Shown: positions 5,421-63,011 of the stretch, one piece after another | How the letters are laid out: each line of letters starts with the position of its first letter | Position numbering within the stretch: the first letter of the stretch is position 1 | From: Octopus vulgaris | Lineage: Eukaryota | Direction: 5' to 3' | Length of the DNA stretch: 64,000 nucleotides | Assembly (NCBI GenBank): GCA_951406725.2 | Contig: OX597820.1 | Coordinates: forward strand, 94,736,001-94,800,000 | Notes under the pieces: model-generated | Told to the model about the DNA's origin: nothing | Database searches by the model: none | Seen by the model: the letters and a program-made list of their open reading frames with translations, nothing else | Translations under genes and position numbers: made by a program

Positions 5421-5514
5421 ATGTCTCTTAACGAAATCACTGAAGGTTTACGAAAGGCCGTTGAATCTGGACGGACGGATATAGTGCGAAGTGTGATTTC
5501 AACTTTACAAAAAA
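5421..5514 (+). CDS. Coding exon 1 (MSLNEITEGLRKAVESGRTDIVRSVISTLQK), degenerate ankyrin-like
   Basis: ATG at 5421; donor a|gtaagt at 5515, phase 1; lies just downstream of a CpG-rich promoter-like patch. Confidence 0.8.
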
Positions 5515-10680: not shown

Positions 10681-10711
<31 letters not shown>

Positions 10712-13700: not shown

Positions 13701-13714
13701 TTGCATTTTAACCA

Positions 13715-13765
<51 letters not shown>

Positions 13766-15054: not shown

Positions 15055-15109
<55 letters not shown>

Positions 15110-15792: not shown

Positions 15793-15827
<35 letters not shown>

Positions 15828-16791
15828 CGATGGGCTTCTTTCAGTTTTTGTCTACCAAATCCATTCATATGGCTTTGGTCAGCCCAAGGTTATAGTAGAA
15901 GGTGCCATGCAATGGGACTGAACCTGGAAGTATGTTGTTGGGAAGCAAGCATCTTACCACACAGTCAATGCCTGTACCTATATATAACTTTTGTTTTTTA
16001 TATTTCTCTTCTTCTTTTCTGAATACTTTATGCAATCAGTATTAACAGTTTAAATTTGTTGTAACTGTTGCAGATTGGAAGATGATGATGATTATATAAC
16101 CTGTAATAGCTAGGTTTGTGGATAAATTTTAAATAGATTATAAGGCTTATCCATAACCAGGTGAACTCACAGCAAAGCACCCTTTACTTGTATGTTTAAT
16201 TTGTAACAGAAAATAGTGATGTCCATATGTATAATGAGTCAGTCTAAGGCTCATCATTGTTCCTAATGTAATATCACTAATGTTTGCCTGATAAACAGGC
16301 TGGCTGTTGTTTAATTTCCTTTGAGTAAGTTCATTGCATTCTTTATTTCCAAATTGTATTGTTAAGTAATGATGTTTGACATTTAATGTGTTTGAGGTTT
16401 GTGATTCATTGGCACTGCGTTTGTAGAAGTAAAGGATTTTAACTTTGGTTGAACTAAATAGAACAAACAGCTTTGTGTTTGAGGCACTGAATTTGTTAAT
16501 CAACATCCAGTGCATTCTGTAAAGTGCTTGACATTAGGAATGGCATCCAGTTGTAGAAACCATGCCAAAAACCGACCATAGAACCTGGTGTGGCTTCTGG
16601 CCTTGCCAACTCCTGTCAAACTGTCCAGCATGGAAAACAGACATTTAATGATGATGAGGATGTTTTTGAATGTTTTATTTTAGTTTTGTTTTCTTTTTTT
16701 TACAACAGGTACAGAAGTGAAAGATTTGCAAACAGTTTTAAATGAAGCATGTTCTGATGATGGGACACTTCTTCACCTTGCTACAATGGTA

Positions 16792-16843
<52 letters not shown>

Positions 16844-19800
16844 TATGCATGTATGGTGTGTGTGCAGTGTCATCTAAATGCATGGGTGCAGGGATCTCAT
16901 GGATCAAGGCAGACCAATTCTGATCTGTTTATGCTGTGGTTTGCTGTCAGTGAATATATACTATAGTGCCCAGGGGCCTACAATGCTGCCGAAGGCAGCT
17001 GTGTGTGTGTGTTTAACTATGTATTGATTTTGATTATGTATAACCCACCCAAAATGTTATCAGCTGAAATGTTCTCAATGACCTCTCCTCCCACCATGAT
17101 TTTGTTTTGTTGTGGAGCAATCCCATGCCAAAGAACTTATTGGGTAGTTAAAAAGTTGGCTTCCCAACCACATAGTTTTAGGTTCAGTCCCACTCTGGCA
17201 CCTTTGGCAAGTGACTTCTACTATGTCTCTAGGCCATCCAAAGATGTGTAAGTGGATTTGCTAGACAGGAACTGAAAAAAGTCCATGGTTTATGTATCAA
17301 TGTATGTATGTGTTTGTATGCGTGAATATGTGTATGTTTGCATCTTGTTTTGACACTGCATGACAATGAGCAGCACTGTCATACAAGCAGTTTCTGTCAT
17401 TTCTAATATTCTACATAAACATGTCCTGGAGAAATTTTGCCTTGCTTGGAAACAATTGAGGGTCGATGACAGGAAGGGCATCCAGCTAGAGAAAATCTAC
17501 CTCAGATAACTCTGTCTAACTCATGCAAACATAGAAAAGTGAACAGTGATGATGATATATATCACAATTAGTGGACAGATTTTCAGTGGGCTTCTCACTG
17601 TATTTTTGAAAGTGAGAGTTGACAAGAGGGTGTCTGTAAAATGGTTCAGAACAAATATCATAGAATTAATATTGTAGCTTATCTTTAACTTACTGAGTTT
17701 GGAAGAAGGGGAGGTGCCCGTGATCTTCACAGGTTCTCCAAGACTAGTGAGCTTGATGTTGATTATGTCCCACTTAAACTATTGCAGGTCAACACCTGCT
17801 GAAAAGACATGAATAGGAAGATTCCTGAGAGCCAGTGCTTTGGGAGAAAATAACTGGACATAATGGTTAGTGCAGGACTACAGTAGGAGGGTTAGAATTT
17901 TGTAGATGAGGTCAGAACAGTACTGGGAGAGTTTTTTTTTTCTTTTTTGTCACGGACAAGTGAATTTTGAAAGAGGGGCCTTGCAAGTCTACCAGATAGA
18001 TGGAAGAGCATTGAAGAAGATGAAGAATACATTTTAGATTACAAAAAAACTTTATCTTAGTTTTGAAAAATAAAAGAAATATAAAAAACTGGATTATTCA
18101 TAGGATGACCCAGTATATATATAAAATAGTGAAGGCACATGACTCAGTGGTTAGAGCATTGGGCTTACAATGATGAGGGTGTGAGTTCAGTTCCCAATCC
18201 AGGCTGTGTGTTGTATTCTTACACAAAGCGCCTTATTTCCCGTTACTCCAGAGGATATGACCAAAAACTGCGTGAACTCCATCCCATGCAGCTGTGGTAG
18301 GTTATACAAAGGCGAAACATGTTGCCCCCTCAAAATAAGGGTAGAGGAACATTGCAAAGCTGTGACACGAGGAGATATTGATAAATCAGGTATAGCTGAT
18401 CATGTATGGAAAAATGGAGACCACCTCCCCCTGTAGGATGAAGTTAAAATAATTGACAGAGAACACCACTGGAAAATATGAAAACTAAAAGAAGCAGCAT
18501 ATATGCTAGGACACAACATCCTCCTAAGCAGGCCGAGTGCAGATATGAATAGCATATGGGAACCGGTATTAAGGAAGGATAGGAGAATATTAGATTTATA
18601 AGCCCCAAAATTCACTCCATAATTGTCCATGGGTATATGGCATAGTGGTTAAGAGCGCAAGTTATTAGCCCCAAGATTCCAAGTTCTATTCCAGGCAGTG
18701 ACCTGAATAATAATAATAATAACAACATCGAAAAATACCTTAAGAATGAGAACCCAAGTTCAAAATTTCCCCCAAGACACCTGATGAAGGCTGGAGGGTA
18801 TATCAGCTGAAACATTGTATTAACAACAGACAACATGAGGATAAATATCCGTCAAATGTAAATAATGTACATAATTCCACATCTCTTAAATATAGAAAAG
18901 AATATATATTACTGATACTTATTGTAGCAGCCCTGGAAGGATGTAAAAACTCTGAAATATTTAAGGAAATAGCTAAATAAAACCCTTTTCTTTTTTAAAA
19001 AAATCACTTCTGTTTCTGTCAAATTCACAGCCATAGCTCACTCTTATAAATAATTAGTTTCTTATAACAGGCTTCTTCTTTTCGATTATAGCTGGGAGAG
19101 GCTGACATTGTACGCACTTTGCTCTCTGCTGGTGCAGATCCAGGCATACACAACAAAAATCAACGAATTCCTCTGGACCTTGCTATGTCAGAAAATGTGA
19201 GAATTGTCTTCAATGAAGAACTTCTGCAAGCCACTGCACATTCCAAGTTAGTTACAATATTCTCACATCTTTGATTTCATTTTCTCTTGTCTAGCAGTAA
19301 CCATGTGTAAGCTGTGCCAGTGATTCTCAAAGTGCTCCAAACTGCTAAGGTCCCATAAATGTATCTGTCGTCTTTAACCCCATACATCCATCAATCACCT
19401 TTATATATTCCATATTGTTTATCATAGAGGTTGGTATTGTATGCATTTGCTCTCATCAGTCACGGACATACACTAAAAAAATTAGCAAATTCTTCTGAAC
19501 TTTGCTCAGTCAGATAAAGTGAAAATCATCTCCAATGAAGAACTTCTGCATGCAACTGAACATCTCTGTAGAAATGATTACATAATAACAGCAATATTAT
19601 AATTCATTGTAAGGCAGCGAGTTGGCAGAATTGTTACCATGCCAGGTAAAATGCATAGTGGCAATTCATCCACCTTCATGTTCTGAGTTCAAATTCTGCC
19701 CAAAGTCATTTTTACCTTTTATCCTTTCGGAGTCAATAAAATAAGTACCAGCTGAGCACTGGGGTCAATGTGTAATCGACCTACTCCCTCCACTGAAGTT

Positions 19801-22800: not shown

Positions 22801-23210
22801 CCTAACCACTGGGCCATTGCGCCTCCACACAACTATATGTAAGAATAGGGTCTATGTATGCCCTTGACATTCTTTTTGCTCACACTTCTTTACAGCTGTG
22901 TATATGACAATATATCTTTGATCTCGCCAAAAGCAATATTAAAATGAATATTAATATTTTATTTCACTGAGACATTTTAAAGAAAATACCTATTAGCATT
23001 GTAATCCTAATTACACTGTTTGATTTTTCTTCAGTATGGGGCGTGTATGCCAGCTCTTGGCTTCTGGACTTGATGTAAACCTGAAGGACAGCAGTGAAAG
23101 CCAAAACACACCTTTACATTGGGCTTCTTGTTATGCCTCACGTGACATGGTACAATGTCTCTGCTGTAAGATTTTGCTGATGATAACATACTTATTTTTA
23201 TTTGCTCTCT

Positions 23211-23245
<35 letters not shown>

Positions 23246-23456
23246 CTCTCTCTTCCTTCTCCATCTCTCTCTCATTCTGTTTTTATGTATCTAGTGAATC
23301 CCTCTACTATCTGTCTGTATCTATCACAGTGATGACTTCATATGCTTTTTTCTTTTTTACTCTCTCACTGTATTTGTATGCTTGTATCTATCTTAAGTAA
23401 ATCTCTATTATTAGACTACATATCTAACCCACTGACCACTTTATGCTTGCTCTCTT

Positions 23457-23504
<48 letters not shown>

Positions 23505-24053
23505 ATGAATGACTCAAAGCACTAACTCTTTGCTGTATATCATTTCCCTTCAGTATGCTACTCTTGACTCATTTCCATTATGTAATTTCTAGTGCGTGGT
23601 GCTGATGTTAACGCAGTCAACATGGATGGTTGCACTCCACTTCATGAGGCTGTCTCAAGAGGGAACATTGAGATTGTGGAAGAACTGCTAATCCATAAAG
23701 CTGACCCAACACTAAAGATTAAAAGAGGGTAAGAACATATCTTATTCAAACATAAAAACTTTCTAAAGTGTAAATAAATTAGTTTTTCAGAAAAATAATT
23801 TATTCCTACTTTGTGAACTATCTGAATTAATTACACTCTTTTACTTTTTACTCTTTTACTTGTTTCAGTCATTTGACTGTGGCGATGCTGGAGCACCGCC
23901 TTTAGTCGAGCAAATCGACCCCGGGACTTATTCTTTGTAAGCCCAGTACTTATTCTATTGGTCTCTTTTGCCGAACCGCTGACGGGGACGTAAACACACC
24001 AGCATCAGTTGTCAAGCAATGCTAGGGGAACAAACACAGACACACAAACATAT

Positions 24054-24103
<50 letters not shown>

Positions 24104-25075
24104 GACAGGCTTCTTTCAGTTTCCGTCTACCAAATCCACTCATAAGGCATTGGTCGGCCCGGGGCTATAGCAGAAGACACTTGCCCAAGATGCCACACAG
24201 TGGGACTGAACCCGGAACCATGTGGTTGGTTAGCAAGCTACTTACCACAGCCACTCCTTCGCCTATTATGTGTAACATAATTTTTGTCCTTGGGTAGCAA
24301 CTGTTATTTCCTATTTGATTACCTCGAGAAATTATGAAAAATGGCTAATATTTCCTTCAAACTTTGCTTTTGTTACATTTATTCAAACCCCAAAGAATCC
24401 CTCTTAATACATTGCTGTGATGCTCCCCCACTACTCCTGCTCATGATCAGAGATGCACATATTGTCAGCCACTAAGACTGACCACATGCTCAAGTGGTTA
24501 AGGTTAAGCAACTGACAAGCAAATCTGTGGTATTGAGCAGAATATTAGCTATAGCAATATTTCTGCTTCAGCAACTCAGTGCTGAATCTGTCTGAAATGC
24601 AATAGAAAATAGATTAGTTTCAAAACATTGATGTCCTGGTCACAAAAGTAAAGTTTAAAAGGGATAGTAATAGTTTTCTTTGATTTCTAGATAGAAGTGT
24701 AAATAGGAAATAACACTTAGTAGCCAAAGACAAAAAAAAAATGTTATTTTGTTACAGTGTTATTTGCAGGCAGAGGCTAGCGCTAGTTTCTACACATTCT
24801 GTTGTGCCACTTATTTAATTGTGTAATTATGAAGTTCACATCACAACCATATGGTTTCAAACATACCCACATACACATACCCACACGGCCACCCACACAC
24901 ACATATACGTATATTTGCACACAAATTCATCCTCATATACACATAGGTATATGCTTACATATATATGAGACATTTGTGCATATAAATATATGCATATCTA
25001 TCTATCTATCTATCTATCTATCTCTCTCTCTATATATATATACACATCCTCATATTATTATTATTATTATTATTA

Positions 25076-25145
<70 letters not shown>

Positions 25146-49400: not shown

Positions 49401-52230
49401 TATCAAACACAGCAGTTTTTCTTTTTCTCTATTCACCTAAGGTTACTTTCATTATTTTTCTTCATTTATATTTAAATAACAAATTTCGTTATTAGCATTG
49501 TCATAGCAGTGAAAACTGGTTCTTTTGACTCACTTGTGCCACAATCTTCACAATAGCACATACACACACAGAGATAAACATGAATTTGTTTGCATTATTT
49601 TATATTATATTCTAGGTGTATCTGAAGTTTCGTATGCTTGTGTGGGTACTCTGGAAAAATCAGAATGAATCTGAGGGAAACAGTTAGAGGGGACTCCATC
49701 AAGACCTATGTCCTTGAGTGGGCAGGAACTATTACTAAAATGGAGTTCAGATGCATTTGAATGTCCACTTTTCCATGCTTGCATAAATTGGACTTTATTT
49801 ATATGTGTATATATATATATATGTGTGTGTGTGTATGTTTGTGTTGAACCATTAATCCTGACACGTTTTTTCTTCCTCTGTTTTTCTCCTCTCAACCCTT
49901 TCTGTCAAAGAGCGTAGGCTCAAATTGTCAAAGACTTCCATTCTTCCCAAGCAGCCAACTAATACACCAGCTTGGTGTTTCCTCACCAGTTTTCATCTTT
50001 AGTTTTCTGTAAATTTAAACTATATATATATATATATATATATATTTAAGTGCATATATATATATACATAAGTGTGTGTGTGTGTGTGTACACATTGGAC
50101 TTAAAGTCACAAGCATACACATTTTCCAATTCCATTTTGATTTTAGGTTTGGTTTCTTTGTCTGTCCAGGCACTGCAGCTTGGAACAGTCTGGCTGGCTT
50201 CCCAGAGGCAGCTGTTGCCAATATATTTAATGCTGCAAAGTGTGCCTCAACTCAGTCAGGCCTTGGTCTATTGGTATGCCATTGGGCTGGTAGCAGCTTT
50301 CTCACTCACTCACCATTCTGTTGGCCTGGTTTTGTCATCACTGCTGGCCTCGCCTGGAACAAGGATATACACTGGGTAAGTTAATGGTAATATAAAACAC
50401 ATCTAAGACCCTTTTTTTTATCTTCTCCATATATTCTGATTCTTACTACCTAAAAATTTTAGAGATATCATAACAGCTTCTCCAAGGCATTCACTGTGGC
50501 ACTTGATCTTATTTGATTTATTTTTAGCTTTGTTTTGACATCTGTTTTATTTGATTTATTGTAGATTTGTTATTGTTTAGCTCAAGATTATCCTTGATTG
50601 AGCAAAACTGCTACACTGTGAAAATTTTTTTTCTTCTTTTTTGTCTTTGGTTACTAAGTGTTATTTCCTATTTACTTCTATTTAGAAATCAAAGGAAGGA
50701 AATAACTATCATTCCCTTCAAACTTTGCTTTTGTGACTGGACATCAATGTTTTGAAACTGACCTATTTTCCATTACATTTCAGACAGATTCAGTGCTGAG
50801 TTGCTGAAGCAGAAATATTGTTATAGCAAATATTCTGCTCTATACCATAGATCTGATTGTCAATCACTTGACCATAACCACTTGAGCATGTCCCTTAGTG
50901 GCTGACAATATGTGCATCTCTGATCATAAGCAGGAGTAGTGGGGGAGCATCACAACCATGTGGTGAGAGGGTTTTTTTGGGGTTTGAATAGATAAATGTA
51001 ACAAGAGCAAAGTATGAAGAAGTATTAATCATTTCTCATACTTTCTGGGGGCAAGCAAATAGGAAATAACAGCTGCTACCTAAGGACAAAACTCATGTTA
51101 CACAGTGTTATCAAAGGTATTCCAACAGTGATCATTCCATCTTTTTTCTCAGACATAGTGTATCAGTGTTTACTTAGTGTATTATTCCATTTCTAAGTTA
51201 GTAGGGATGATATAAGGGCAATTTGGCTTCTTTTTCTAGTAGCTTGAATAGCCATGTAAAACACTTTTGTTGGCTCATTAATGTAGAGAAAATTAATGTA
51301 GGTTCTACCTTCTCATTTATTCTATCTCTCTGCATTTTGTGCATGTATCTCTTTAAAAACACAACTATTTTGTTTTGTTTTTCGGGGCTTTTTTGCTTTA
51401 CACTTTGACAAAAGTATTTTGTGTCAAATATTAGAATATTTAATTATTCTAAGTCTCTAAATGAATCAATGTTTTAAGATGTTCATCACCTCCAGATTAA
51501 GGTGGTGGGTTGGCAGAATCATAAGAGCTTTAGGCAAAATGTCTCATAGTATTTACTCTGGTTCTTTATGTTCTGAGTTCAAATCCTGCCTAGGTCGTCT
51601 TCTTGTTTCATCCGTCCAGTGTCACTAAAATTAAGTATTAATCCAGTGTAATGCATTAGTGATATTTTTAAACATGGTAGCAAATACCATGCTGTATTTA
51701 TTGTGACTCCTTACAATCTGAATTCACCTGCCGTGACAATGGTGCTTTGTTATAGTAGCCCTTACCATTCCCTTGGATAACATACATTGCTAACCTTGAC
51801 CGAGTGAGGCCATTGAATTGATCTAGATCAGTGGTTCTCAACCATATTTTTACCTATGGATCCCTTTGATTCCTATTCTATTCAATGGAGGGGGACCCTC
51901 AACATCTAAAACTCCTGTTATATTCTTGTGACTAAATATTATTAGGAATTGTATAAAAAAATTGTTTGAATATTTTGTGTATTGTAGAAGTACAACCATT
52001 TTATTATCTCTTATCTTTTACTTGTTTCAATCATTTGACTGCAGCCATGCTGGGGCTCCACCTTGAAGTGTTTTAGTCAAACAAATCGACCCCTGGACTT
52101 ATTTTAGTTAAGCCTGGTACTTATTTTATCGGTCTGTTTTGCTGAACCACTAAGTTACAGAAACATAAACACACCAACTTTGGATCTCAAGCAGTGGTGA
52201 TGGGAAGGGACAAAAACAGACATGAACACA

Positions 52231-52283
<53 letters not shown>

Positions 52284-55200
52284 GATGAGTTTCTTTCTGT
52301 TTCTGTCTACTAAATCCACTCACAAGGGTTTGGTCAGCCCAAGACTATAGTAGAAAACACTTGTCCAAGGTGCCATGCAGTAAGACTGAACCTAAAACCA
52401 TATATTTCAGAAGCAAGCTTCTCACTGCACAGCCATGCCTGTGCCTATTACAGGCTATATAGACACCAGTTGAAAACCACTGATCTAGATTATATATATA
52501 TATGCTAGGATATAATGTGAAATTAATAATTATTTCTAGCATAGGTACATGCTCATATGTTATAGGAGTACACAGTTGATGCAGTCAACACCAATATTTC
52601 ACATGATTTGATGTTAACAACCCCAGAAGGATAGAAAGCTAACTCCAACCTCAACCAAATTTGAACTTGAAACATAAAAGGCCATAACTAAACATGCTAA
52701 TACAGCCGTCTACTGATTCTACCAAAGATATAATAAGATTAAGAGACTACAATTTGAAATCATAAAATGGGAGGTTTTTAATAATAGATTTTACTCCCAA
52801 ATATTTAATTTCTCATTATTATCAATGACTCTCTTACTCTGCTAAATCTTTTATCAATTGAATTTAAACTTCATTAGCAGCAATGTTGTTATTAATATGT
52901 TCTCCTTAAGGGAAAATTTCCGCTTTCCATGCTAGCATGGGTTGGACGGTTCAACTGGGGTCTGATCTGGCAGTGTTTCTACGGCTGGATGCCCTTCCTA
53001 ACGCCAACCACTCCGTGAGTGTAGTGGGTGCTTTTTACGTGCCACCCGCACAGGTGCCAGGCAAGGCTGGCAAACGGCCACGGACGGATGGTACTTTTTA
53101 CGTGCCATCGGCACAGGGGCCAGGCAAGGCACCATCCGATCGTGGCCATTGCCAGCCTTGCCTGGCCCCTGTGCCGATGGCACGTAAAAAGCACCATCCG
53201 TCCGTGGCTGTTTGCCAGCCCTGTCTGCCAGATCAGACCCCAGTTGAACCGTCCAACCCATGCTAGCATGGAAAGCGGACGCTAAATGATGATGATGATG
53301 ATGTCTGCTGTTTCCATGGTGGCATGAGTTGGGCAAGAGTTATTGGTTTTCTAGGTTAGATGGAAACTGAGAAAGCCTGTCATATATGTGTATGTGTGTT
53401 AGTATTGTGTTTATCCACTATTTCACAGCTAGTGTTGGTTTATTTATGTTCCTGTAACTTAGCTGCTCAGCAAAAGTGAGACATACCAGGCTTTAAAAAA
53501 TAAGTACTCGTGGAGTGGTAGGGGGTTATTTATCTGACTAAACCCTTCAAGATAATGAGATAGTGCCTCAATATAGCTGTAGTTCAGTGACTGACACAAG
53601 TATAAGGTAAAAGATATACAATGGGCTTCCATACAGTTTCCATCTGTGTTACAAGCTCCATGTTAGAAGTAGAGCCTGTGAGATAACATGCTGTTGAATG
53701 CATGATGTTGGCAACATTTATGTTTACAATTAAATTTACATACCGTAAATCCTCGAGTATAGTCCGCCCTTCAGTATAATACGCAGGGGATTTTTAGGGG
53801 GCTGTACCTCTGAAAAACCTAAACTTTGTATATAATACACACCCCTTCTTTAACTTGAGTCGCGCTTAATTAAGCCAGCAGCACCAAGTCGAACAAACTG
53901 CATGCGTAATACAATAATGGTGATGTTCTTAACTGTTATATGGGAATGTAAATATGTTTGCAAATTGTTTTTGCTACATGTTATTCTGTGTTCTGAATAC
54001 TTTTATTTTAATAAATGTTGCTTACTGCAAGTTATGGATGATTCTTTTATGACTTCATTGCTTTCAGGCTTAGCTTAAGGTATTTTCCCACCCGACATCA
54101 CAAAATGCGTTTGAATAAATATTGCCGGACAGCAAATAGAGACTCGGACATTACTTAGAAAATATTTTTCATTTTTAACCTCGTATATAGTACGAACTAG
54201 GGTTTTTGACCTTTAAATTTTGGGAAAGAAATGCGGATTATACTCGAGGATTTACAGTACATCATTAGTCATTTGCAATATATTTGTCTGCCTTCCAAAG
54301 GTTGCAGATTGTTGTTTAGCCTTTGGTCAGCTTTTTTCATGCAAACTTTACAACCAAAGATGTTCCAAACATGATTTTGTATATTCAGAATTATCTTATT
54401 CAGTGTACCTTTTCTATTATTGAGACAGTACTGTGTGATTTGAGAGATATTTGACTGTTATCTTTAGCAGGTCAAGGAACTATCTATTGGCTCAATTATA
54501 GTTAGCTGTTTAACAGGAATCCATTAAATAAATTAGGCAATTAGAGTTTATGTTTCTTCCATAAGAACACAACATACTGGCTATAGTAATAAATCATACA
54601 TTGATGATCATAGCACCCAGTTGTCCAGCACTCTTAACCATTGTAATGTAGGGTCAAAGTGGGGAGGGATCCTTAGCTTCTGTCTAAATATAATGATAAT
54701 TCTATCAGATCTCATTCTTATTTCAGGAGTTTCTTCAGAGCAATCTGGCAGACCTTATGAACAAACATATATTTCGTGATGATTCTTCTGTTTTTGGACA
54801 AGTTATCATTGAGTTGGGAAGAATTGAGACCTACGTCTATCGATGTTCCCAAAAGAAACAAGGTAGGAAGCTAGTTCCTGTCAAAGATAATGGTGTGTGA
54901 TTTTTAGTTCCTGTTTCGTTGATGCTATTAAATTCTATTATTGAAACAAAAATATTTTATGGTGACCACAAGTGACAATCATCATCATCATCATCGTTTA
55001 GCATCCGTTTTCCATGCTAGCATGGGTTGGACGGTTCTACTGGGGTCTGTGAAGCCAGAAGGCTTCATCAGGCCCAGTCAAATCTGGCAGTGTTTCTACG
55101 GCTGGATGCCCTTCCTAACGCCAACCACTCTGTGAGTGTAGTGGGTGCTTTTTACGTGCCACCCGCACTGGTGCCAGACAGAGCTGGCAAACGGCCACGA

Positions 55201-58200
55201 ACGGATGGTGCTTTTTATGTGCCACCGGCACGAGGGCCAGGCAAGGCTGGCAACGGCTGGCAACAAATGAGTATTAATTTCTTATTCCCTCCATGGAAAG
55301 GAAAATCATCATTATAATGTCTTGATGTGTTGTCAACACACTGTTTTCATCAATACAGTGTCACCAATTGTATTAAGTTTATTACATTTCTTTTTTGCTT
55401 TTGTTATTTGTCTGCTGCTGCTGTTCTTGAAAATTGTTTGGTAGTTTTATTTCTGATTCTAATACTCTTAATTATTCCCTTTTTTCTTTTTCTTTTTTCT
55501 TCTTTTTTGTGCAACAGGTTTGTTAGAGCTTTGACAAAGAACTACTTGTGGTGGATAGTAGTTTTATGTAAGGGTAGTCTTACACACACACACACACACA
55601 CTTTACTGTGCGCGTGCACACACACATACACACACACACACTTTACTAGGATATCTGAATTTACTTAACAAAGTTGTCATACTGAAAATATTTTTTATTT
55701 TACTAAGATATTGAAAACAACAAATCTTGCTTGTTTTTTTTTTCTTTACAACTTCAGCAGTCCTCAAAATTTTTATTTGGCCTAGTTTCTGCTTTTTTTC
55801 CAATGTATCCCAAAGAGAAATATCACTGCTCTCTCCTTAAGCATAGGAGTGGCTGTGTGGTTGCTTAACATCCACATGGTTCCGGGTTCAGTCCCACTGC
55901 GTGGCACCTTGGGCAAGTGTCTTCAACTATAGCCTCGGGTTGACCAAAGCCTTGTGAGTGGATTTGGTAGACGGAAACTGAAAGAAGCCCGTCATATATT
56001 ATATATATGTGTGTGTGTATATGTTTGTGTGTCTGTGTTTGTCTCCCTAACATCACTTGACAACCGATGCTGGTGTGTTTACATTGCCGTAACTTAGTGG
56101 TTCGGCAAAAGAGACCGATAGAATAAGTACTAGGCTTACAAAGAATAAGTCCTGTGGTCGATTTGCTCGACTAAAGGCAGTGCTCCAGCATGGCCACAGT
56201 CAAATCACTGAAACAAGTAAAAAGAGTTATGTACAATTATTCAACTGTAACTCCACTGTGGTCGATTATGCTCGACTATCTCCTCTTTTTTAGATGATGA
56301 CCAAACCTCTCTTCCTTGTGAAAATGGGTCCACTCTTACTAATTTCCTTGTGCGACCTGATGAAACAAGATTAGAAGACTTAACAGCAGATATTCTACAG
56401 GTAAGGGATTAGTTCAACATTTCAGTCTTTTTATGCTGTCCTGTGGCATCAGCAACCTTTATATTATCTCAAGTCCTTACCCTCTGACTCATGTATATAG
56501 GTACATTCACTACTCGTCCTTCCTTGATATTCTCACATACCGGTATACCCAGACACTAACATATTGATAGTGCTGTACTCAGAAATCACAAACCTACATA
56601 CATATCCATTTCCTTCCTCCATAACTACCATGAAGTCTGTATAATAGCAAACAGAACTTTTCCTGTCTATTTCTTGATAAAGAGCCTCTGCTTGAAACAC
56701 CTTTAGAGTTCCTTTCCTCATTGCAACAGCATTTAATTTTAGCTATTACCACATAGGCGCAGGAGTGGCTATGTGGTAAGTAGCTTGCTAACCAACCACA
56801 TGGTTTTGGGTTCAGTCCCACTGCGTGACATCTTGGGCAAGTGTCTTCTGCTATAGCCCCGGGCCGACCAATGCCTTGTGAGTGGATTTGGTAGACGGAA
56901 ACTGAAAGAAGCCTGTCGTATATATATATATATGTATGTGTGTTTGTCCCCCTAGCATTGCTTGACAACCGATGCTGGTGTGTTTACATCCCCGTCACTT
57001 AGCGGTTCAACAAAAGAGACCGATAGGATAAGTACTGGGCTTACAAAGAATAAGTCCCGGGGTCGATTTGCTCGACTAAAGGCGGTACTCCAGCATGGCC
57101 GCAGTCAAATGACTGAAACAAGTAAAAGAGTAAAGAGTACTTCCTTTGTATTACTTGTTGCCAACACAGACCCATATCAGATTCCTGTGATTTTAGATTT
57201 TACATTCAGTCTTTATGTATTGCTGTCATCATATATAGTCTTTATCAAATCTATTTTAATTGACCTATGGCATAACAAAATCTGAAATAAGCTAAATAAA
57301 GCATACGATGAACACTTCTTGCTGCGGCTGTCCTGTCTAAGAAATAATGTTGCTTTAGTTATCTATGTACAATACCTAATAGATTTTGATGTTTATATAC
57401 AAGCACAGACATGGTTCTGTGGTTTAGAAGTTCACTGCTCTACCATATTGTTCCTGGTTTGATCCAGTGCATGACTTGATCAAGTCATCATGAAGCAATA
57501 GTCTGTCTTCAGGTGCCCTTCTTCACATAACACTACTGAATGGAATATTTTGTTAATGAGGGATGTAACCTAATATCGCTGTGCCCACATGGTGACAATG
57601 TGAAGACAATAACAACATACAGGAAGTTTGCTTCCCAGCCATGTGATATGGGGTTCAATCCCATTGCAGGGTGCATTGAGCAAACACACTCTACTTTAAC
57701 TCCAATGTCAACCAAAGCCTTCTGAGTGAATTTGGTACATCAAAACTGAAAAAAAAAACTCATTTTATATATCTTTTTATTTTTTTTCTTGTTTCAGTCA
57801 TTAGACTGTGACCATGCTGGGACACCAGCTTGAAGAATTTTAGCCTTCTATTGTTGTCAACCAAAGCCTTGTGTGGTTGGAAAGCAAACATCTTACCATA
57901 CAATCATGCCTGCACCTATATAATTGTTCACATTTTCCCTTTTAAATAAATAGACGTGCTTCAGCATATACAAGATTATGTTTCAATTTCTTTGTCCACT
58001 AATTGTATTCAGTTATCCACTTCTATGTATGTTATATATAGACAAATACACACACATATAATAAGTTTTGTGTCTCTTAATTCAAAACTGTTTCAGTACT
58101 ATAATACAATTTGTTTTCTGTTATCTAATTGAAGCGAGCCAACCGCCTTCTACGGAAGCACCAGTCTGATGTAACAAGCATCCAGTTGAATTGTCCACAA

Positions 58201-61200
58201 TCAAAGGAAATCATCTCTGAGGTGCTTCTCACAACAGACATGATGATCCTGGCAGTACGGCAAGTATCATAACAGTTCATAATTTAAGAAATGTGTCTGA
58301 GTATACTCGTCTGGTTCTAAAAAGATACATTTGCGATGCACAAATAAACTCGGGATAATCCATTAAGGGGTTAACAAATAATGATTGTAATAAATCAATG
58401 TAAGATCTGTATGTGGCCATCTGACATGCTAGAAATAGTAACCAAATATTCCTTAAATTGTATCCTACCAATAGTTTCATTATGAATCATAGCAGAATCT
58501 ACATACAGAGGTCACATCAGATTAGATTAATTTTGTCATGATAGTTTGATAGCTTAAATCAAAATCATTATCATCATCATTGTTTTATGAACAGTTTCCA
58601 TGCTGGTATGGGTTGGAGATGTAACAATCTGAGTCCTTTTATAACAAAAGCTACTACTCTCAGAGTGGTGTCCATGCCTGTCATTTTAGCTTACCTTCTA
58701 AGGCTAAGTACCTTTCCTGTCGCCAACCACTTTAGAGAGTTCACTGGATGCATTTTCTTGTGACACCAGCACTAAAGAGGTTAGTAAGTTCTCAGCAAGA
58801 TAGAACTTAATGGGCCTATAATCCTGCACTTCCTTTACGTATTTGTTTCCCCATTTTACAGTGTGTACTGGGTGCATTTTTAGTGGTACCAGTACTAAGG
58901 AGATTGTCAAGTTCTTGATGAGACAAGGTTAAAGGGACCTCTTAATCTTTAAGGTAGTACATTACCTCTGCTCCCTTACCAGTCATTCTACAGAGTGTGC
59001 AAGGGAGCTTGGAGGAAGCACTTTCCATCAAAGTCTCAACATACAGGGTGTGGAAGATATGGTGGCAGCACAGATCCACCACCATCACCTTATTGTAGTG
59101 TCTATTAATGCCTAGCAGTTGTTGCAGATTTTTTCTCCTTTTCTTTCTTGTTATCATTCCTTTTACATAGATAAGTTGAATTTGAGAGGTTTTTACTTAT
59201 TTTACTTTTTATTGACAAAATAAACTACAAAATAGAAACTGAAATATGATACTAACGTTCTTGAAACTTAAACGAAGTTCATCTGCATTAATTTCACCTT
59301 GTTATCTTTATCTACCTATCTAAAACATTTGTGAGCACTTGCCCCCCACCCACCCACACACACACACACACTCTTCTCTTCTCAGACTATCTGATAAATG
59401 AAAATATGGTGGCAAATATTAGGGAGAAAATGCAAAGTCAGCTCTGGCAGTATTTGAACTGATAAGGAGGGTTTACTATGGCAATTGTTCTACTACCTTT
59501 AATATCCTCAATTTCCTTTGATGGGCTTATCTCTGTTTACATTGCTTTCTTGTGCCTTGTATTATCATTATGTTTAAGGTGGCAAGCTAGTAGAATCGTT
59601 AGCAAGCAGGGAGAAATGTTTAGCAGCATTTCGTCTGTCTTCACATTCTGAGTTTAAATTCTGCTGAGCTCAGCTTAGCCTTTCATCCTTTCAGGGTTGA
59701 TAAAATAAGTACTGGAGTTGATGTAATCGACTCCCCCCCCGCCGCCCCAAAATTGCTAGCCTTGTGCCAAAATTTGAAATCATCATTATTATTATTATGT
59801 TTTTGTTTCATAATGTTTTAATCAAAAGAAAAGAAATTATGCTCAATGTCTGTTAGTGGCTTTCTGAATCTGGTGACACTGTCAGAGTTGATGTGCATTT
59901 TGAACATCTGCATGTAAACATCTGTAGGAAAAAAATCATGTGAAAGAACTTCCAGAAGGTTGATGTTCTGAAAAGTAAGAAGTAGGGAGAAGTGATTAGT
60001 CCAAGACCTGATAGGAAAGGGGGAAATGCACACTAATGTAGTGTGACAAGAGAAAGAGTGGTACAACTGGTATACATGTAGCTAATTTTCAGGGTAGCAC
60101 AGCAGTGATAAAATAGACACAGACAGAGCAAATCAGCTTATCTGTTGAGCCAGAGGTTGTACAATGAATGAGTAAGAATCAATTGGAAAACCTTTTGGAA
60201 GCTTTTTGTGTATGGGAGCAGTATCCCCCCACCCCAGCATGGTTCTTCCTAATTCAACTACTTATAATTGTTGAAAGCTGGTGATTGCTTTCCAAACAGC
60301 AATTAGTTACACATTCTATAGTTTGTAGAAGTACCTTCATGAATAAGACACTGAAATATCACACATTGGTCTCATTTTTCAAATTCGCTGTAGAAATTTT
60401 GTTTTGTTTTTAGGTAGCATACATAATTTTAAAAAAACTTCAGTTAGCCTAATTATTACCAGCATTATACAGCAGATTGTTTGTCAGTATTCATCATCAT
60501 CATCATCATTTAGCGTCCGTTTTCCATGCTTGCATGGGTTGGACGGTTCAACTGGAGTCCGTGAAGCCAGAAGGCCGCATCAGGCCCAGTCAGATCTGGC
60601 AGTATTTCTACAGCTAGATGCCCTTCCTAACGCCAACCACTCCATGAGTGTAGTGGGTGCTTTTTACGTGCCAGCCGAAATAAACATGTTTTCTATTTAG
60701 TGGGAGATTTATCTCTCATCCACTTAACACCTTGAAACTAGAGCTAAGCTTCAGCAATTATGAACCTAGTACTGTTGGCATGGCTGTGTGTTAAGAAGTT
60801 TTCTTCCCAGCCACAAGGTTCCAGGTTCAGGCCCATTATGTAGCACATTGGGTAAGTGTCTTCTACTATAGTCCAGGCCAACCAAAGTCTTGTGAGTGGA
60901 TTTAATAGAGAGAAACTGAAAGAAGGCCATTGTATGTGTGTGTAACATATGTGTGGTGCGTGATACAGTGTCATTGCTTTGACATTACATGATAGTTGTA
61001 AATAAGTGTCACTGGAATACAAGTGCTGCCCTTCATTTCTAATATTCTGTTTAAACATGTCTGGTCATGGGAAAAAATTTTACCTTGGAATCAGGTGACA
61101 GTTGGCAACAGGAAGGGTATCCAATTGTTGAAAATCTGCCCTGACAAATTCTGTTCAATCCATGTGAAAATGGAACAGTGGATTTTAAAATGATGTGCCG

Positions 61201-63011
61201 GTGGCACGTAAAATGCACCAATCCGACCGTGGCCATTGCCAGCCTCGCCTGGCACCTGTGCGGGTGGCACGTAAAAAGCACCCACTACACTCACGGAGTG
61301 GTTGGCGTTAGGAAGGGCATCCAGCTGTAGAAACATTGCCAGATAAGACTGGAGCCTGGTGCAGCCTTCTGGCTTCCCAGATCTCCGGTTGAACCATCCA
61401 ACCCATGCTAGCATGGAGAATGGACGTTAAATGATGATGATGATGATGATGATGACACCACCAATGACAATGACAACAAAAACAAGTACTGTACTGTGTT
61501 ACATAATGTTTTCATCTGTTGTTTTATATTGGGCTAATCTATTTATCTTGTACTATAACACATTTCCTGCTTGTCATTGTTAATTTCTGTTTCTCAAAAC
61601 ATAACAGGATTGGACGTGCTATGGTGACTGCTGGTCGCAACCCTGATCCCTTATCTGGCCTGCGTATAGTAAATCTTGGAATCACAAACTTGACTGCTAC
61701 TGGAAAAACAGATCTTGCTAACAGGTTTTTACATGTTTTTATGTACTATTTTGTTGTAGAGAATAAGGAGCCCCTATTCCATGTGAAAGTTTGCTAATAT
61801 TTTAAGAGTTGTACTCAACTGGCATAATTGTTAGAGCAAGAGATAATATATCTTATCATGTTTAGGTTCTGGGTTCATATCCTACTGATGTTAACTTTGC
61901 TTTCATCTTACTGGGATTGATAAAATAAATTATTAGTTAAGTTCTGGGGTTTCCAAAATTTGTGGCCTTATGCTAATATAAGAAATTGCCATTTCTTGGC
62001 TTGAATTGAAGAAGATTGGTCTAATTACTTTGCAAGTAGTTAGCCACATGTCCTTACATTCTGAGTTCAAACCCTACAGAAGTGGATTCAGTTATAGCCC
62101 AGTGTTGATCAAATAAGTACCAGTAATAGTACTGGATTCAACTCAGCTGAATATATCTCTCCTACAAATGGTGTGACTTTGTCCAAATGTAAGAAATTAT
62201 TGTTGCTGTTCAACCCCAAGTTTCTAATTTGTTAAAGGAAACTTGTGTGAAAGCCCATTGGAGGGATGGTTTCTATTTCTGAGTGGTAGACTTAACCTGT
62301 AACCAGCTTTAATATGGATATTTGGTCCTTAAGTGTAAACATTTGGGCAAGTTTCTGATCTGAAAATAATTTTATGTTTTCTTCTCTTCCTCCCAATTTT
62401 TTTGGAGCCTTTAAGTGGGTATCATAACCTCTGCCTTTCTTCCTCTGATTAAGTCAAAAAAAATTTTTTGGAACAATAGGCAGAAAATTATCTCAGAGAG
62501 CATGATATTGCTGATGAACACACTAACCCTTTTGTTACCAAATTCCTTTTGAAATGTGCTACTTTTGTTTTAATTAATTTTGGAAATAATTAAGATTTTA
62601 GTAAAACAACTTTGTCATTATGAATCTGGCTTTTAGAACATAAATTAACATGAAAGTTTGATGAAAGGTTTTAATTTTGATCACTTTCAAACAGGAAGTT
62701 TATATTGTAGGACCAAGGCCAGTTTCGGGCAGGTTGGTACCAAAAGGGCCAAAAAATTTTCTGAGTCTAGAGACCTTATCTATAAAATCTTCATCATGGG
62801 AATCTTTCCAGTAAGGAACAGTATTATGCCTCTCAATTTCCTTTATCTTTGCAGACTTCTGGAGCTGATTGAGAACTTTCGTGTGAGTTGGAAACGAAGA
62901 TATATTGCAAAATTAGGTTTACTGGAAGCCACAAATTGCTTACAGAATGTGCTGACGCAATTAGTACCAAATGAAGATGCAGAGAAATTTTCTTCTTCTA
63001 TTATAGGGTAA
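5421..63011 (+). CDS. Spliced gene, 22 coding exons, ~926 aa: ankyrin repeats + GH20 (beta-N-acetylhexosaminidase)-like domains, probably catalytically inactive
   Basis: All exons join in frame with matching phases across 20 GT-AG introns and 1 GC-AG intron. Ankyrin motifs: [29 protein letters not shown]. GH20 motifs: LWPRPQSI, ITDSPSLPYRGVLLDVSKGRVP, LKNMLDNIAYMKFNQ, YSCSELLEIDKFCMDRGMQLIP, FFVCPGTAAWNS. Confidence 0.9.
7200..8085 (-). mobile_element. CRE-like non-LTR retrotransposon 3' fragment (REL endonuclease)
   Basis: Translates to SGDWIDAIP...LRVG...HGLSC...H, GKRPDGLT-like and LFQHISLAITRGNAASV motifs; contains stops and frameshifts. Confidence 0.75.
8700..9780 (-). mobile_element. 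Penelope-like element remnant (GIY-YIG endonuclease end + 3' tail)
   Basis: Minus strand translates to CGNNRCGIC, NLLYCITC...RIHKQ and CNIPLSKHLEICG. Confidence 0.65.
9925..10105 (-). mobile_element. Penelope pseudo-LTR copy with degenerate hammerhead
   Basis: Reverse complement of 18720-18896; reads CTGATGA-AGGCTG..CAGCC-AAAA, with GAAA mutated. Confidence 0.65.
10128..10320 (-). mobile_element. SINE/LINE 3'-tail repeat family C ending in (ATG)n/(CAT)n
   Basis: catcatcatcgtttaacgtcc...ggatgcccttcctaa... motif. Other copies near 16520, 35110, 43298, 52919, 54980, 60492, 61195. Confidence 0.75.
12285..12525 (+). mobile_element. Mariner transposase C-terminal remnant
   Basis: Translates to LPHPPCSPDLAPVDFHLFPKMKMQLK...HWDRC, matching the mariner HPPYSPDLAPxDF motif; contains stops. 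Confidence 0.8.
12600..12859. repeat. Perfect 115-bp inverted repeat with 30-bp spacer (fold-back/MITE)
   Basis: 12600-12714 equals the reverse complement of 12745-12859. Confidence 0.92.
13715..14560. repeat. Long CT-rich polypyrimidine tract with internal direct duplication
   Basis: (CT)n, (CTAT)n and CCCCCTCTCT repeats; ~13750-13870 is repeated at ~13865-13995. Confidence 0.9.
14624..14904. mobile_element. Penelope-like pseudo-LTR remnant with 64-bp inverted arms, inserted in (TA)n
   Basis: 14624-14687 is the near-perfect reverse complement of 14841-14904; carries the hammerhead; (TA)n on both sides. Confidence 0.65.
14676..14761 (-). ncRNA. Minimal type I hammerhead ribozyme (Penelope-type)
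   Basis: Minus strand reads AUUUUC-CUGAAGA-GAAGGCUGCAAA..UUUGCAGCCUUC-GAAA-CAUAUG-UA-GAAAAU: stem I 6 bp, stem II 12 bp or more, palindromic stem III, GUA cleavage triplet. Confidence 0.8.
15101..15522. repeat. Near-perfect inverted repeat with ~200-bp arms, flanked by (TA)n
   Basis: ~15101-15303 pairs with ~15316-15522 around a loop of about 12 nt. Confidence 0.9.
16709..16788 (+). CDS. Exon 2 (STEVKDLQTVLNEACSDDGTLLHLATM), ankyrin
   Basis: Polypyrimidine tract + cag acceptor; donor atg|gtaggt; phase 1 to 0. Confidence 0.88.
18241..18900 (+). mobile_element. Penelope-like element 3' part: GIY-YIG endonuclease + pseudo-LTR with degenerate hammerhead
   Basis: Translates to CVNSIPCSCGRLYKGETCCPLKIRVEEH...SGIADHVW...KEA; at 18777-18820 ACAC-CTGATGA-AGGCTG..CAGCT-GAAAC. 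Confidence 0.8.
19092..19246 (+). CDS. Exon 3 (LGEADIVRTLLSAGADPGIHNKNQRIPLDLA...LLQATAHS), ankyrin
   Basis: tag acceptor; donor aa|gttagt; phase 0 to 2; ankyrin IVxxLLxxGAD motif. Confidence 0.92.
19426..19567 (+). pseudogene. Decayed tandem duplicate of exon 3 (pseudo-exon)
   Basis: Translates to LNFAQSDKVKIISNEELLHATEH versus exon 3 LDLAMSENVRIVFNEELLQATAH; its 5' part has indels and in-frame stops. Confidence 0.8.
19940..20123. mobile_element. piggyBac-like MITE; related copy at ~29375-29586
   Basis: Termini aaccctttaacattt ... gaatgctaaaggtttaa in a TTAA-type context. Confidence 0.5.
20816..21207 (-). mobile_element. Non-autonomous Helitron
   Basis: Minus strand 5' TC ... subterminal GC hairpin ... 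CTAG 3', inserted between A and T; internal ~100-bp duplication. Confidence 0.7.
21480..21641. repeat. (TAA)n/(TAC)n microsatellite
   Basis: Direct reading; a similar (TAT)n tract lies at 25054-25142. Confidence 0.95.
22443..22826 (-). mobile_element. Young tRNA-derived SINE with 14-bp target site duplication
   Basis: TSD acacaactatatgt at 22429-22442 and 22827-22840; A box TGGCCCAGTGG, B box GGTTTCGATTCCC; CpGs retained. Confidence 0.88.
23035..23165 (+). CDS. Exon 4 (MGRVCQLLASGLDVNLKDSSESQNTPLHWASCYASRDMVQCLC), ankyrin
   Basis: cag acceptor; donor t|gtaaga; phase 2 to 1; TPLHWA. Confidence 0.93.
23593..23728 (+). CDS. Exon 5 ([44 protein letters not shown]), ankyrin
   Basis: tag acceptor; donor gg|gtaaga; phase 1 to 2; canonical ankyrin repeat. 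Confidence 0.95.
24268..24600. mobile_element. Dispersed repeat; inverted copy at ~50690-51104
   Basis: The two regions align as reverse complements (tgtgtaacat...gtagcaactgttatttcctatttg...). Confidence 0.7.
25849..26030. repeat. ~86-bp tandem duplication in CA-rich low-complexity DNA
   Basis: Units start at 25849 and 25935. Confidence 0.8.
26171..26283 (+). CDS. Exon 6 ([25 protein letters not shown]...), end of ankyrin stack
   Basis: cag acceptor; donor a|gtaagt; phase 2 to 1. Confidence 0.9.
27045..27625. repeat. Old diverged inverted duplication (~190-bp arms) plus ~55-bp direct repeat
   Basis: ~27123-27313 matches the reverse complement of ~27436-27624; 27045-27100 is directly repeated at 27381-27436. 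Confidence 0.75.
28273..28433 (+). CDS. Exon 7, Ser/Pro-rich linker (EDFALSESVIQN...KIQELSSQV)
   Basis: cag acceptor; donor gtt|gtaagt; phase 1 to 0 bridges exons 6 and 8. Confidence 0.8.
30243..30402 (+). CDS. Exon 8 (KELECLP...LSLLWPRPQSIVQKEGNHF...), start of GH20 domain-2-like region
   Basis: cag acceptor; donor a|gtaagt; phase 0 to 1; LWPxP motif typical of the start of hexosaminidase domain 2. Confidence 0.9.
31092..31276 (+). CDS. Exon 9 (IHSVAQVWNCRKF...ASYKIIIQSFQ)
   Basis: cag acceptor; donor cag|gtaaac; phase 1 to 0; SYxIxI strand of GH20 domain 2. Confidence 0.88.
31690..34805 (-). mobile_element. R4/Dong-like non-LTR retrotransposon, decayed
   Basis: RT motifs YQPITCLNTTYRILT, WIDYRKAFDIVPH, IFQGDSLSP, HLFYMDDLKL; also HHPKANVDRLYLPRSNGGRG; frameshifts present. 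Confidence 0.88.
35353..35463 (+). CDS. Exon 10 (VKILAHDIQSLSYAIITLSQLFNLYKTESGISIPLLE)
   Basis: tag acceptor; donor gaa|gtaagt; phase 0 to 0; matches the GH20 domain-2 pattern IxA...LxYAxxTLxQL. Confidence 0.92.
37638..37709 (+). CDS. Exon 11 (ITDSPSLPYRGVLLDVSKGRVPNI), GH20 barrel start
   Basis: tag acceptor; donor ata|gtaagt; GH20 IxDxP...RGxxLDxSR signature with R changed to K. Confidence 0.95.
37800..38780 (+). mobile_element. Internally deleted L1/Tx1-like LINE
   Basis: ORF1-like zinc knuckle CFICGETTHL followed by RT start NFRPITLLNTEFKILAKVL. Confidence 0.7.
38979..39029 (+). CDS. Exon 12 (ETLKNMLDNIAYMKFNQ)
   Basis: cag acceptor; donor cag|gtacta; GH20 LKxxxDxxAxxKxN helix. Confidence 0.92.
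39590..40011 (-). mobile_element. Probable Helitron 5' fragment
   Basis: Ends in tatatatagat (minus-strand ATCTATATATA), like the 20816-21207 element; internal short duplications. Confidence 0.4.
40375..40439 (+). CDS. Exon 13 (IHLYTRFRYQTSSAWQLCYSC)
   Basis: Strong pyrimidine tract + cag acceptor; donor ag|gtatgt; phase 0 to 2. Confidence 0.9.
42158..42304 (+). CDS. Exon 14 (ELLEIDKFCMDRGMQLIPAVDVHP...YISHFTNS)
   Basis: cag acceptor; donor ga|gtaagt; phase 2 to 2; GH20 ExxxxxxRGxxxIP motif. Confidence 0.92.
44500..45930 (+). mobile_element. Internally deleted RTE-like LINE
   Basis: Translates to TWNIQTLQD, LTRFTVDVAAIAETRL (APE), CETWTV and WFRHV; many disruptions. Confidence 0.7.
46482..47723 (-). 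mobile_element. Near full-length maT (DD37D) Tc1/mariner transposon, decayed
   Basis: TIRs CAGGGTACGGTGAATAAACTGTC / CAGGGTGCGATGGGTAAATTGTC with TA flanks; motifs FFSDEKNF, WQQD and WPPNSPDCNPLD, with 37 residues between the 2nd and 3rd D. Confidence 0.9.
47818..48019 (+). CDS. Exon 15 (FINVGSRLTSFLLEYPDD...LPPHLMFGEYGTQ), contains the degenerate catalytic strand
   Basis: cag acceptor; donor cag|gtaaga; phase 2 to 0. Confidence 0.9.
49100..49146 (+). CDS. Exon 16 (ATYNFVPHCKRLSEY)
   Basis: tag acceptor after a pyrimidine tract; donor gg|gtaagt; phase 0 to 2. Confidence 0.88.
50147..50375 (+). CDS. Exon 17 (FGFFVCPGTAAWNSLAGFPEAAVANI...GLAWNKDIHW)
   Basis: tag acceptor; donor tgg|gtaagt; phase 2 to 0; VCPGTxxWNS and A-x-x-AWN motifs. 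Confidence 0.93.
51829..52482. mobile_element. hAT-type MITE with nested SINE; related copy at ~43166-43663
   Basis: TIRs CAGTGGTTCTCAAC / GTTGAAAACCACTG; perfect 8-bp TSD ATCTAGAT. Confidence 0.85.
52919..53279. repeat. Nested fold-back of repeat family C
   Basis: Outer arms 52919-52973 / 53225-53279; inner arms 53065-53130 / 53155-53220. Confidence 0.88.
53743..54257. mobile_element. pogo/Tigger-like MITE
   Basis: TA-CCGTAAATCCTCGAGTATAGTCCGC ... GCGGATTATACTCGAGGATTTACAG-TA. Confidence 0.8.
54727..54862 (+). CDS. Exon 18 (EFLQSNLADLMNKHIFRDDSSVFGQVIIELGRIETYVYRCSQKKQ)
   Basis: cag acceptor; donor g|gtagga; phase 0 to 1. Confidence 0.9.
56294..56400 (+). CDS. Exon 19 (DDDQTSLPCENGSTLTNFLVRPDETRLEDLTADILQ)
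   Basis: tag acceptor; donor cag|gtaagg; phase 1 to 0. Confidence 0.9.
58135..58259 (+). CDS. Exon 20 (RANRLLRKHQSDV...EIISEVLLTTDMMILAV), followed by a GC donor
   Basis: Weaker aag acceptor; only the cg|gcaagt donor (phase 2) keeps frame with exon 21. Confidence 0.8.
61608..61724 (+). CDS. Exon 21 (IGRAMVTAGRNPDPLSGLRIVNLGITNLTATGKTDLAN)
   Basis: cag acceptor; donor ag|gttttt; phase 2 to 2. Confidence 0.85.
62855..63011 (+). CDS. Exon 22, terminal (LLELIENFRVSWKRRYIAKLGLLEAT...SSSIIG*)
   Basis: cag acceptor; TAA at 63009-63011; candidate polyA signals ATTAAA at 63394 and AATAAA at 63451. Confidence 0.88.

Follow-up and report, generated by a model that had tools for sequence, protein, structure and literature searches.

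A putative cytosolic ankyrin–GH20 pseudo-glycosidase of Octopus vulgaris and the likely decay of its active site on the animal stem

A gene of Octopus vulgaris appears to join ankyrin repeats to a GH20 hexosaminidase fold, which raises the question of whether this is one real protein and, if so, whether it acts as an enzyme, a sugar-binding module or a protein-binding scaffold. The gene lies in a window of 64,000 nucleotides (assembly GCA_951406725.2, contig OX597820.1, positions 94,736,001 to 94,800,000), the whole stretch of DNA analysed here, which is repeat-rich animal DNA with 37% GC. All coordinates below are positions in this window.

A splice-aware walk of the window found one unique 22-exon path, from the ATG at 5421 to the TAA at 63011, that spells the 926-residue product P0001 (Table 1); its introns comprise 20 of the GT-AG and one of the GC-AG type. 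P0001 equals the uncharacterised Octopus sinensis record XP_029638897.1 (926 aa), which was retrieved at 100% identity with one candidate exon as the query, and an O. vulgaris record is identical to it over 926/926 residues. The 22 exons of the original prediction thus do encode one protein. A search of the octopus genome with exon 17 returned one genomic match, indicating a single copy. Furthermore, within the region 19000–38999, contigs lacking introns connect neighbouring exons where the model places the boundaries in three of four runs (three studies), namely exons 3–9 in X1, 3–10 in X2 and 5–10 in X6; in run X13, exons 3–6 and exons 7–8 are found in separate pieces among those listed. The RNA status of the four runs is assumed; the contigs skip introns, however, and their support spans exons 3–10, the basis for exons 11–22 being the splice model together with records of the protein. 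The single transcript across exons 6, 7 and 8, on which the predicted fusion depended, is borne out by the intron-free contigs of X1, X2 and X6.

Intron 20 (58260–61607) is the sole non-GT intron of the gene, with the GC donor gcaagt following a terminal ACG in the splice model. At the level of annotation only, the O. vulgaris isoform P0049 lacks residues 111–199, corresponding exactly and in frame to exons 4–5 (23035–23728), whereby most of ankyrin unit 2 is gone, and the record P0048 begins at M58. Intron 9 contains a broken LINE-type retrotransposon on the minus strand (32592–34280; reverse transcriptase match at 32811–33215, E 1e-13), and intron 14 a DDE transposase remnant, also on the minus strand (46608–47195; Pfam DDE_3, E 0.0025, below the cut-off). 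A suspected upstream neighbour gene (70–378, minus strand) was rejected, as it has no Pfam match and an adjacent frame resembles a LINE remnant.

Table 1. Coding exons and selected features of the ankyrin–GH20 gene; positions refer to the window.
Feature	Position	Strand	Residues	Content	Basis
Whole gene	5421..63011	+	926 aa (P0001)	22 coding exons, 2781 nt	splice-aware walk
Exon 1	5421..5514	+	1-31	N-cap helices, family signature G-R18-T-D20, no signal peptide	splice walk, row conservation, leader test
Exon 2	16709..16788	+	32-58	start of ankyrin unit 1	splice walk, AlphaFold model
Exon 3	19092..19246	+	59-109	ankyrin repeat with D63/R66, internal C-cap-like motif, predicted long helix 92-107 linking two ankyrin units	
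Exon 4	23035..23165	+	110-153	ankyrin unit 2 (LHWA repeat)	splice walk
Exon 5	23593..23728	+	154-198	canonical ankyrin repeat	splice walk
Exon 6	26171..26283	+	199-236	ankyrin C-cap, linker start	splice walk, contigs, AlphaFold model
Exon 7	28273..28433	+	237-290	linker, disordered and unconserved	contigs, alignment, AlphaFold model
Exon 8	30243..30402	+	291-343	linker end, start of GH20 domain 2	Pfam, splice walk, contigs
Exon 9	31092..31276	+	344-405	GH20 domain 2	Pfam, splice walk, contigs
Exon 10	35353..35463	+	406-442	GH20 domain 2	Pfam, splice walk, contigs
Exon 11	37638..37709	+	443-466	barrel strand 1; K460 where intact relatives have Arg	
Exon 12	38979..39029	+	467-483	barrel helix 1	splice walk, AlphaFold model
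Exon 13	40375..40439	+	484-504	strand 2; R489 in place of Glu of intact relatives	
Exon 14	42158..42304	+	505-553	strand 3; His lost, loop about 30 aa shorter than in intact relatives	
Exon 15	47818..48019	+	554-621	strands 4-6; Trp lost (S594), Tyr lost (T620)	
Codons replacing catalytic G-x-D-E	47831..47842	+	G559-S560-R561-L562		alignments; coordinates from splice walk
Exon 16	49100..49146	+	622-636	barrel helix 6	splice walk
Exon 17	50147..50375	+	637-713	strands 7-8; W649 and W683 kept, Asp lost (G685)	
Exon 18	54727..54862	+	714-758	helical domain	splice walk, AlphaFold model
Exon 19	56294..56400	+	759-794	helical domain	splice walk, AlphaFold model
Exon 20	58135..58259	+	795-835	helix bundle; GC donor follows	splice walk
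Exon 21	61608..61724	+	836-874	fusion-specific insert and helix T870-D871-L-A-N874 (61708-61722)	
Exon 22	62855..63011	+	875-926 and stop		splice walk

Pfam identifies three canonical ankyrin stretches in P0001, far above the cut-off (Ank, E 1e-23), and a GH20 domain 2 at residues 312–445 that falls slightly below it (E 1.4e-4), the orthologues P0005 and P0009 scoring above it. The Pfam model of the GH20 catalytic domain is matched over its first 37 positions only; profile matches of P0001 to GH20 chains reach E 1e-16. An AlphaFold model (43-row alignment, mean pLDDT 87, pTM 0.69) arranges the chain as about six helix pairs (residues 1–221), a disordered linker (229–302), domain 2, an eight-strand barrel and a helical C-terminus. 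The tandem 33-residue helix-turn-helix units that define ankyrin repeats are seen both in Pfam and in the helix pairs of this model, while the GH20 fold, a (beta/alpha)8 barrel after domain 2, is recognised from the AlphaFold strands, the profile matches and Foldseek, whose top matches are GcnA and GH20C (E 4e-17). The proposed order of N-terminal ankyrin repeats, domain 2, barrel and helical C-terminus therefore holds. In the model, two ankyrin units are suggested by a long helix that comes after the C-cap-like motif of exon 3, and the pTM of 0.69 fits undocked ankyrin and GH20 halves without proving that they are undocked. The linker, described earlier as Ser/Pro-rich, is present, but its Ser enrichment is modest (13 Ser and 5 Pro in 77 aa).

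With respect to location, a crude test for an uncharged hydrophobic leader (a 10-mer near the N-terminus with KD >= 2; not SignalP) flagged none of the 46 fusions, in agreement with the leaderless N-terminus originally described, while flagging 6 of 22 non-ankyrin relatives. P0001 also has no strong 19-mer hydrophobic segment (maximum 1.54), and the signal peptide or anchor of secreted and lysosomal hexosaminidases was not found in the fusions. Since all 46 fusions are leaderless in the crude test, the protein is predicted to be cytosolic.

Streptococcus gordonii GcnA and S. pneumoniae GH20C (2epn, 2epk, 5a6k, 5ac4) present domain 2, barrel and helical domain in the same order as the octopus protein (Foldseek target TM 0.63–0.66, identity 11–13%). 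Unlike the octopus protein, these are active enzymes without ankyrin repeats, possessing D222-E223 and a full −1 subsite according to the available text of PMC11308363. The sequences closest to the GH20 part as a whole form an uncharacterised prokaryote-type subfamily (P0026, P0027, P0042 and P0043; 22–27% identity over about 80%), and the closest non-animal relatives come from bacterial genomes and metagenomes. When P0042 is searched against the octopus genome, the ankyrin–GH20 gene is its best match, ranking above the ordinary octopus GH20 genes. In contrast to the octopus protein, the subfamily has an intact site, no ankyrin repeats and no TDLAN motif (0/80), and some members carry leaders. 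This subfamily is large (CPGTxxWNS, TDWGDxGH; intact sites), extends to the amoebozoan Ceratiomyxa (P0188) and is without a close solved structure, the best PDB sequence match (E 3e-13) covering mostly domain 2.

The GH20 fold named in the original prediction stands, although its subfamily, the prokaryote-type, GcnA/GH20C-like one rather than that of HEXA/HEXB, had gone unnoticed there. HEXA/HEXB and insect FDL/Hex (subfamily 2) do match domain 2 and barrel strands 1–3 (E 1e-10 to 1e-8); however, they are secretory or lysosomal and active, and the match ends at strand 3 and includes no helical domain III. The animal GH20 subfamily 1 (human HEXD, nematode HEX-2 to HEX-5; T. suis HEX-2, 8QK1) likewise has a barrel followed by a helix bundle, and HEXD has been reported to be nucleocytoplasmic (PMC11308363). 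According to the available descriptions, its members differ from the octopus protein in being active and free of ankyrin repeats, and HEX-2 has no domain 2 before the barrel, HEXD having been compared by description rather than by alignment. The word ankyrin does not occur in the available text of PMC11308363. On the ankyrin side, tankyrase resembles the octopus protein in having capped repeat units joined by a long helix, and 5jhq is among the best-scoring natural matches. A tankyrase identity was nevertheless rejected, because no scanned member contains a SAM or PARP domain and the ankyrin part covers only about 220 residues, not five clusters; given the missing SAM and PARP domains, the database name tankyrase has been carried over from the match to its ankyrin repeats. 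Glycosidase folds kept for binding after the loss of catalytic acids are known from the chitinase-like proteins (GH18) and the SLC3A2/4F2hc ectodomain (GH13), which differ from the predicted cytosolic, ankyrin-fused GH20 of the octopus in being extracellular and belonging to other families. No description of an ankyrin–GH20 fusion was found in the literature searched, also by gene identifiers, with subscription papers and supplements lying outside that search, and none appears in the available text of PMC10138644 (octopus mucus proteome), PMC8998872 or PMC2492878. With uncharacterised records and orthologues across bilaterians, this agrees with the earlier expectation of an uncharacterised protein with invertebrate orthologues.

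It has been reported that GH20 enzymes carry the motif H/N-x-G-x-D-E and that GH20C holds its sugar by R94, D222, E223, W266, W306, Y308, W373, D375 and W339, with R94, D222, W266, Y308 and D375 contacting O3/O4, the acetamido group and O4/O6 (PMC11308363, available text). The catalytic column was anchored by a phmmer alignment of NVGCDE in P0026 to HVGGDE/HLGGDE of the solved GH20s 6q63 and 6je8. In this column, after strand 4, the octopus protein reads N-V-G-S-R-L (557–562) against N-V-G-x-D-E in the closest non-animal relatives, so that the catalytic Asp-Glu pair is replaced by Arg561-Leu562; the animal version is G-P/S-R-L. The pair occurs in 0/37 animal rows of alignment A4 versus 6/6 prokaryote-type relatives, as read by pattern and re-aligned because MAFFT had misplaced this motif in the bacterial rows. 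The strand-5 Trp, strand-6 Tyr and strand-8 Asp are likewise present in all six prokaryote-type rows of A4 and in none of the 37 animal rows. With the GH20C residues other than D-E mapped by motif and strand order rather than by structural superposition, the aromatic cage of the octopus protein is broken, the strand-5 Trp being S594 (Cys in 35/37 rows), the strand-6 Trp Y618 and the Tyr T620; the strand-1 Arg is K460 (Arg in 2/37) and the strand-8 Asp G685 (Asp in 0/37), while W649 and W683 are retained. The octopus protein keeps about 2 of 11 scored sites. The span from strand 3 to strand 4 is 34–36 residues long in 31 of the 36 bilaterian-type rows versus 59–77 in 21 prokaryote-type rows. 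Judged from its sequence, the octopus protein is a GH20 by fold and descent that lacks the catalytic residues, and we regard its site as dead. Six GH20 loci are listed in the octopus genome, of which all four fetched keep H-x-G-x-D-E, and a GH84 locus is also present; the ankyrin–GH20 gene is thus not needed as an enzyme. The bacterial P0042 finds its second-best match in an octopus GH20 locus (G000:C18:67382608-67392263) that contains a large exon and retains an unaltered H-F-G-G-D-E.

The fusion is not specific to the octopus. A profile search against 1.84 billion representatives was carried out, with the best 150 matches listed, and the same ankyrin–GH20 architecture was found in at least 46 proteins, from choanoflagellates to insects. 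The names of 30 clusters cover molluscs, insects, shrimp, a sea spider, nematodes (Loa, Cylicocyclus, Trichinella), a nematomorph, echinoderms, amphioxus, corals, jellyfish, two sponges and four choanoflagellates, and separate searches added annelid and nemertean members; none of the 30 named clusters is from Drosophila, C. elegans or vertebrates, which is no proof that the family is missing in them. The Trichinella models (P0269 cluster) are named eIF3K and the Batillaria model P0019 has a dynein light chain domain, both probably reflecting gene-model joins with neighbours.

Eleven site positions were then scored across the family. Among 21 prokaryote-type rows, which were picked, 20 keep 11/11 and one keeps 10, and all 36 bilaterian-type rows keep 0–4, with D or E kept in 0/36; some of these two labels were assigned by tree position and domain content. 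Nematode copies keep 1–3 sites. P0190 keeps 11/11. In the choanoflagellates, Salpingoeca kvevrii P0187 keeps 11/11, followed by Monosiga with 10/11 (gap), Barroeca with 9/11 (truncation) and Diaphanoeca with 5/11. The Asp-Glu pair is present in three of four choanoflagellates (P0187, P0197 and P0215) and lost in P0184, and, judged by sequence, the intact orthologues carry the catalytic motif and site residues expected of active GH20 enzymes. Non-bilaterian animals keep 4 (coral), 3 (Sycon), 1 (Rhopilema) and 0 (Oscarella) of the 11 sites, and across five such rows the Glu is kept in none and the Asp in three.

From P0190 and the choanoflagellates through to the octopus, the ankyrin modules can be aligned as a single orthologous unit. 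Trees of the GH20 part (69 rows, quick; 32 rows, careful) agree with the species tree; the careful one supports choanoflagellates plus animals at 97/97, animals at 100/100 and bilaterians at 99/96, under LG+G4, which is not a mixture model, and with long branches. The fusion thus likely arose before animals with an intact site, which would have decayed on the animal stem. Site loss is not unique to animals, because Diaphanoeca decayed too: its P0184 and the sister sequence P0193 have lost different catalytic residues (Asp and Glu, respectively), a second decay outside animals. A horizontal transfer from bacteria to Holozoa is not claimed, as P0190 and the Ceratiomyxa enzyme sit without resolution among the prokaryote-type rows; the tree fits either an old eukaryotic origin of the domain or its transfer.

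If catalysis is gone, conservation may indicate what has been kept instead. Identity between the octopus and five distant animals is 31–44% in the barrel versus 4–10% in the linker, which indicates that the dead GH20 domain is still under constraint. In 71 bilaterian-type rows, R18, D20, D63 and R66 of ankyrin unit 1 are among the most conserved polar residues, D20 occurring in 64/64, and T870, D871 and N874, which lie on one helix, are invariant in 70/70 rows with a residue there. The motif [RK][TS]D[LVIF]AN[RK] is found in 36 of 46 fusions, choanoflagellates included, versus none of 80 intact non-ankyrin relatives, suggesting that the TDLAN helix arose with the fusion. Mean conservation is 0.57 in the strand 7–8 half, 0.59 in ankyrin unit 2 and 0.45 in strands 4–6. 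Because several of the most conserved polar residues are situated outside the old pocket, we infer a protein-binding surface, although this conservation could instead be structural. Our preferred reading, to which we assign a probability of about 0.68, is that the octopus protein would be a cytosolic pseudo-glycosidase working as a protein-binding scaffold. Its ancestor may have been a cytosolic hexosaminidase that the ankyrin units guided to its substrates. Catalysis would then have decayed on the animal stem, with the Glu lost in the sponge and cnidarian copies and, by the bilaterians, the Asp, a Trp and a loop lost as well. Selection would have kept the fold for the conserved surface of ankyrin unit 1 (R18, D20, D63, R66) and the TDLAN helix, which may either bind a partner protein or clamp the two halves together.

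The alternatives differ mainly in the role they give to the pocket. A dead lectin or metabolite sensor, whose remodelled pocket would bind either a HexNAc, such as the O-GlcNAc of proteins, or an anionic sugar or a phosphate, and whose ankyrin repeats would relay the signal, seems to us unlikely, yet it is the alternative to be taken most seriously. Two Trp and one Tyr are kept in the octopus pocket while the polar contacts are lost, as seen by sequence alignment; W683 is present in 90% and W649 in 81% of bilaterian-type rows, and an aromatic residue at 618 in most. Together with the conservation of strands 7–8, these residues leave room for a small-ligand site. In the near set, moreover, two acids are replaced by Arg at pocket-facing strand ends (R489 in 34/37, R561 in 32/37), R462 is found in 35/35 rows with a residue there, and chitinase-like proteins provide a precedent for dead glycosidases acting as lectins. 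However, R561 falls to 58% and R489 to 70% in the wider set and the nematode copies keep only the few sites given above, so the pocket is not uniformly constrained. An anion-binding pocket formed by R462, R489 and R561, strong in the 37 close sequences and weaker in the wider set, was accordingly retained only within this sensor alternative. The counterparts of the five GH20C sugar-contact residues (R94, D222, W266, Y308 and D375; PMC11308363, available text) are also lost. The adaptor originally proposed was to couple protein interaction to a HexNAc-glycan-fold module; the cytosolic adaptor is likely, but the catalytic D-E and most HexNAc-holding residues are gone, and since only 2/11 are kept, glycan binding is the weaker option.

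An enzyme that is still active by a new mechanism or on a new substrate is very improbable. The barrel and the overall fold have stayed intact and conserved, E617 (75%) and H688 (60%) near the pocket are moderately conserved, and some database entries are named beta-N-acetylhexosaminidase; those names are automatic, though, no acid pair stands at or near the catalytic position in any of 37 rows, and the pocket has no invariant set of replacements. The suspicion that gene prediction merged two neighbour genes or a decaying pseudogene, which the unconserved linker exons 6–8 and the long, repeat-rich introns might raise, can be practically dismissed, as intron-free contigs span exons 5–9 in three of four runs, the frame is open over 926 codons and the same architecture recurs in the other fusions. 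The scaffold reading remains the one we favour.

OGA has been reported as specific to animals, and the possibility has been raised that protists lose their O-GlcNAc to an enzyme still to be discovered (Selvan et al. 2015, PMC4424335). The choanoflagellate fusion, by its residues, is a candidate for such an enzyme. In a far-reaching version, which we consider a long shot, the intact choanoflagellate ankyrin–GH20 would be a pre-animal O-GlcNAc eraser that died on the animal stem as the GH84 OGA arrived; in invertebrates it would since have lasted over 600 million years by reading or scaffolding O-GlcNAc signalling.

Combined, these results describe a real, ancient and uncharacterised family that is kept in molluscs, annelids, arthropods, nematodes, echinoderms, amphioxus, cnidarians and sponges and is present as a single copy in the octopus. 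The family also corrects the names tankyrase, VAPYRIN and beta-N-acetylhexosaminidase, which are misleading for surveys of chitin and glycan genes in pests, shrimp and parasitic nematodes. Living species appear to document every step by which the enzyme became a pseudoenzyme, the break coinciding with the origin of animals: the site seems intact in Salpingoeca, partly dead in coral and sponge, and dead in the octopus.
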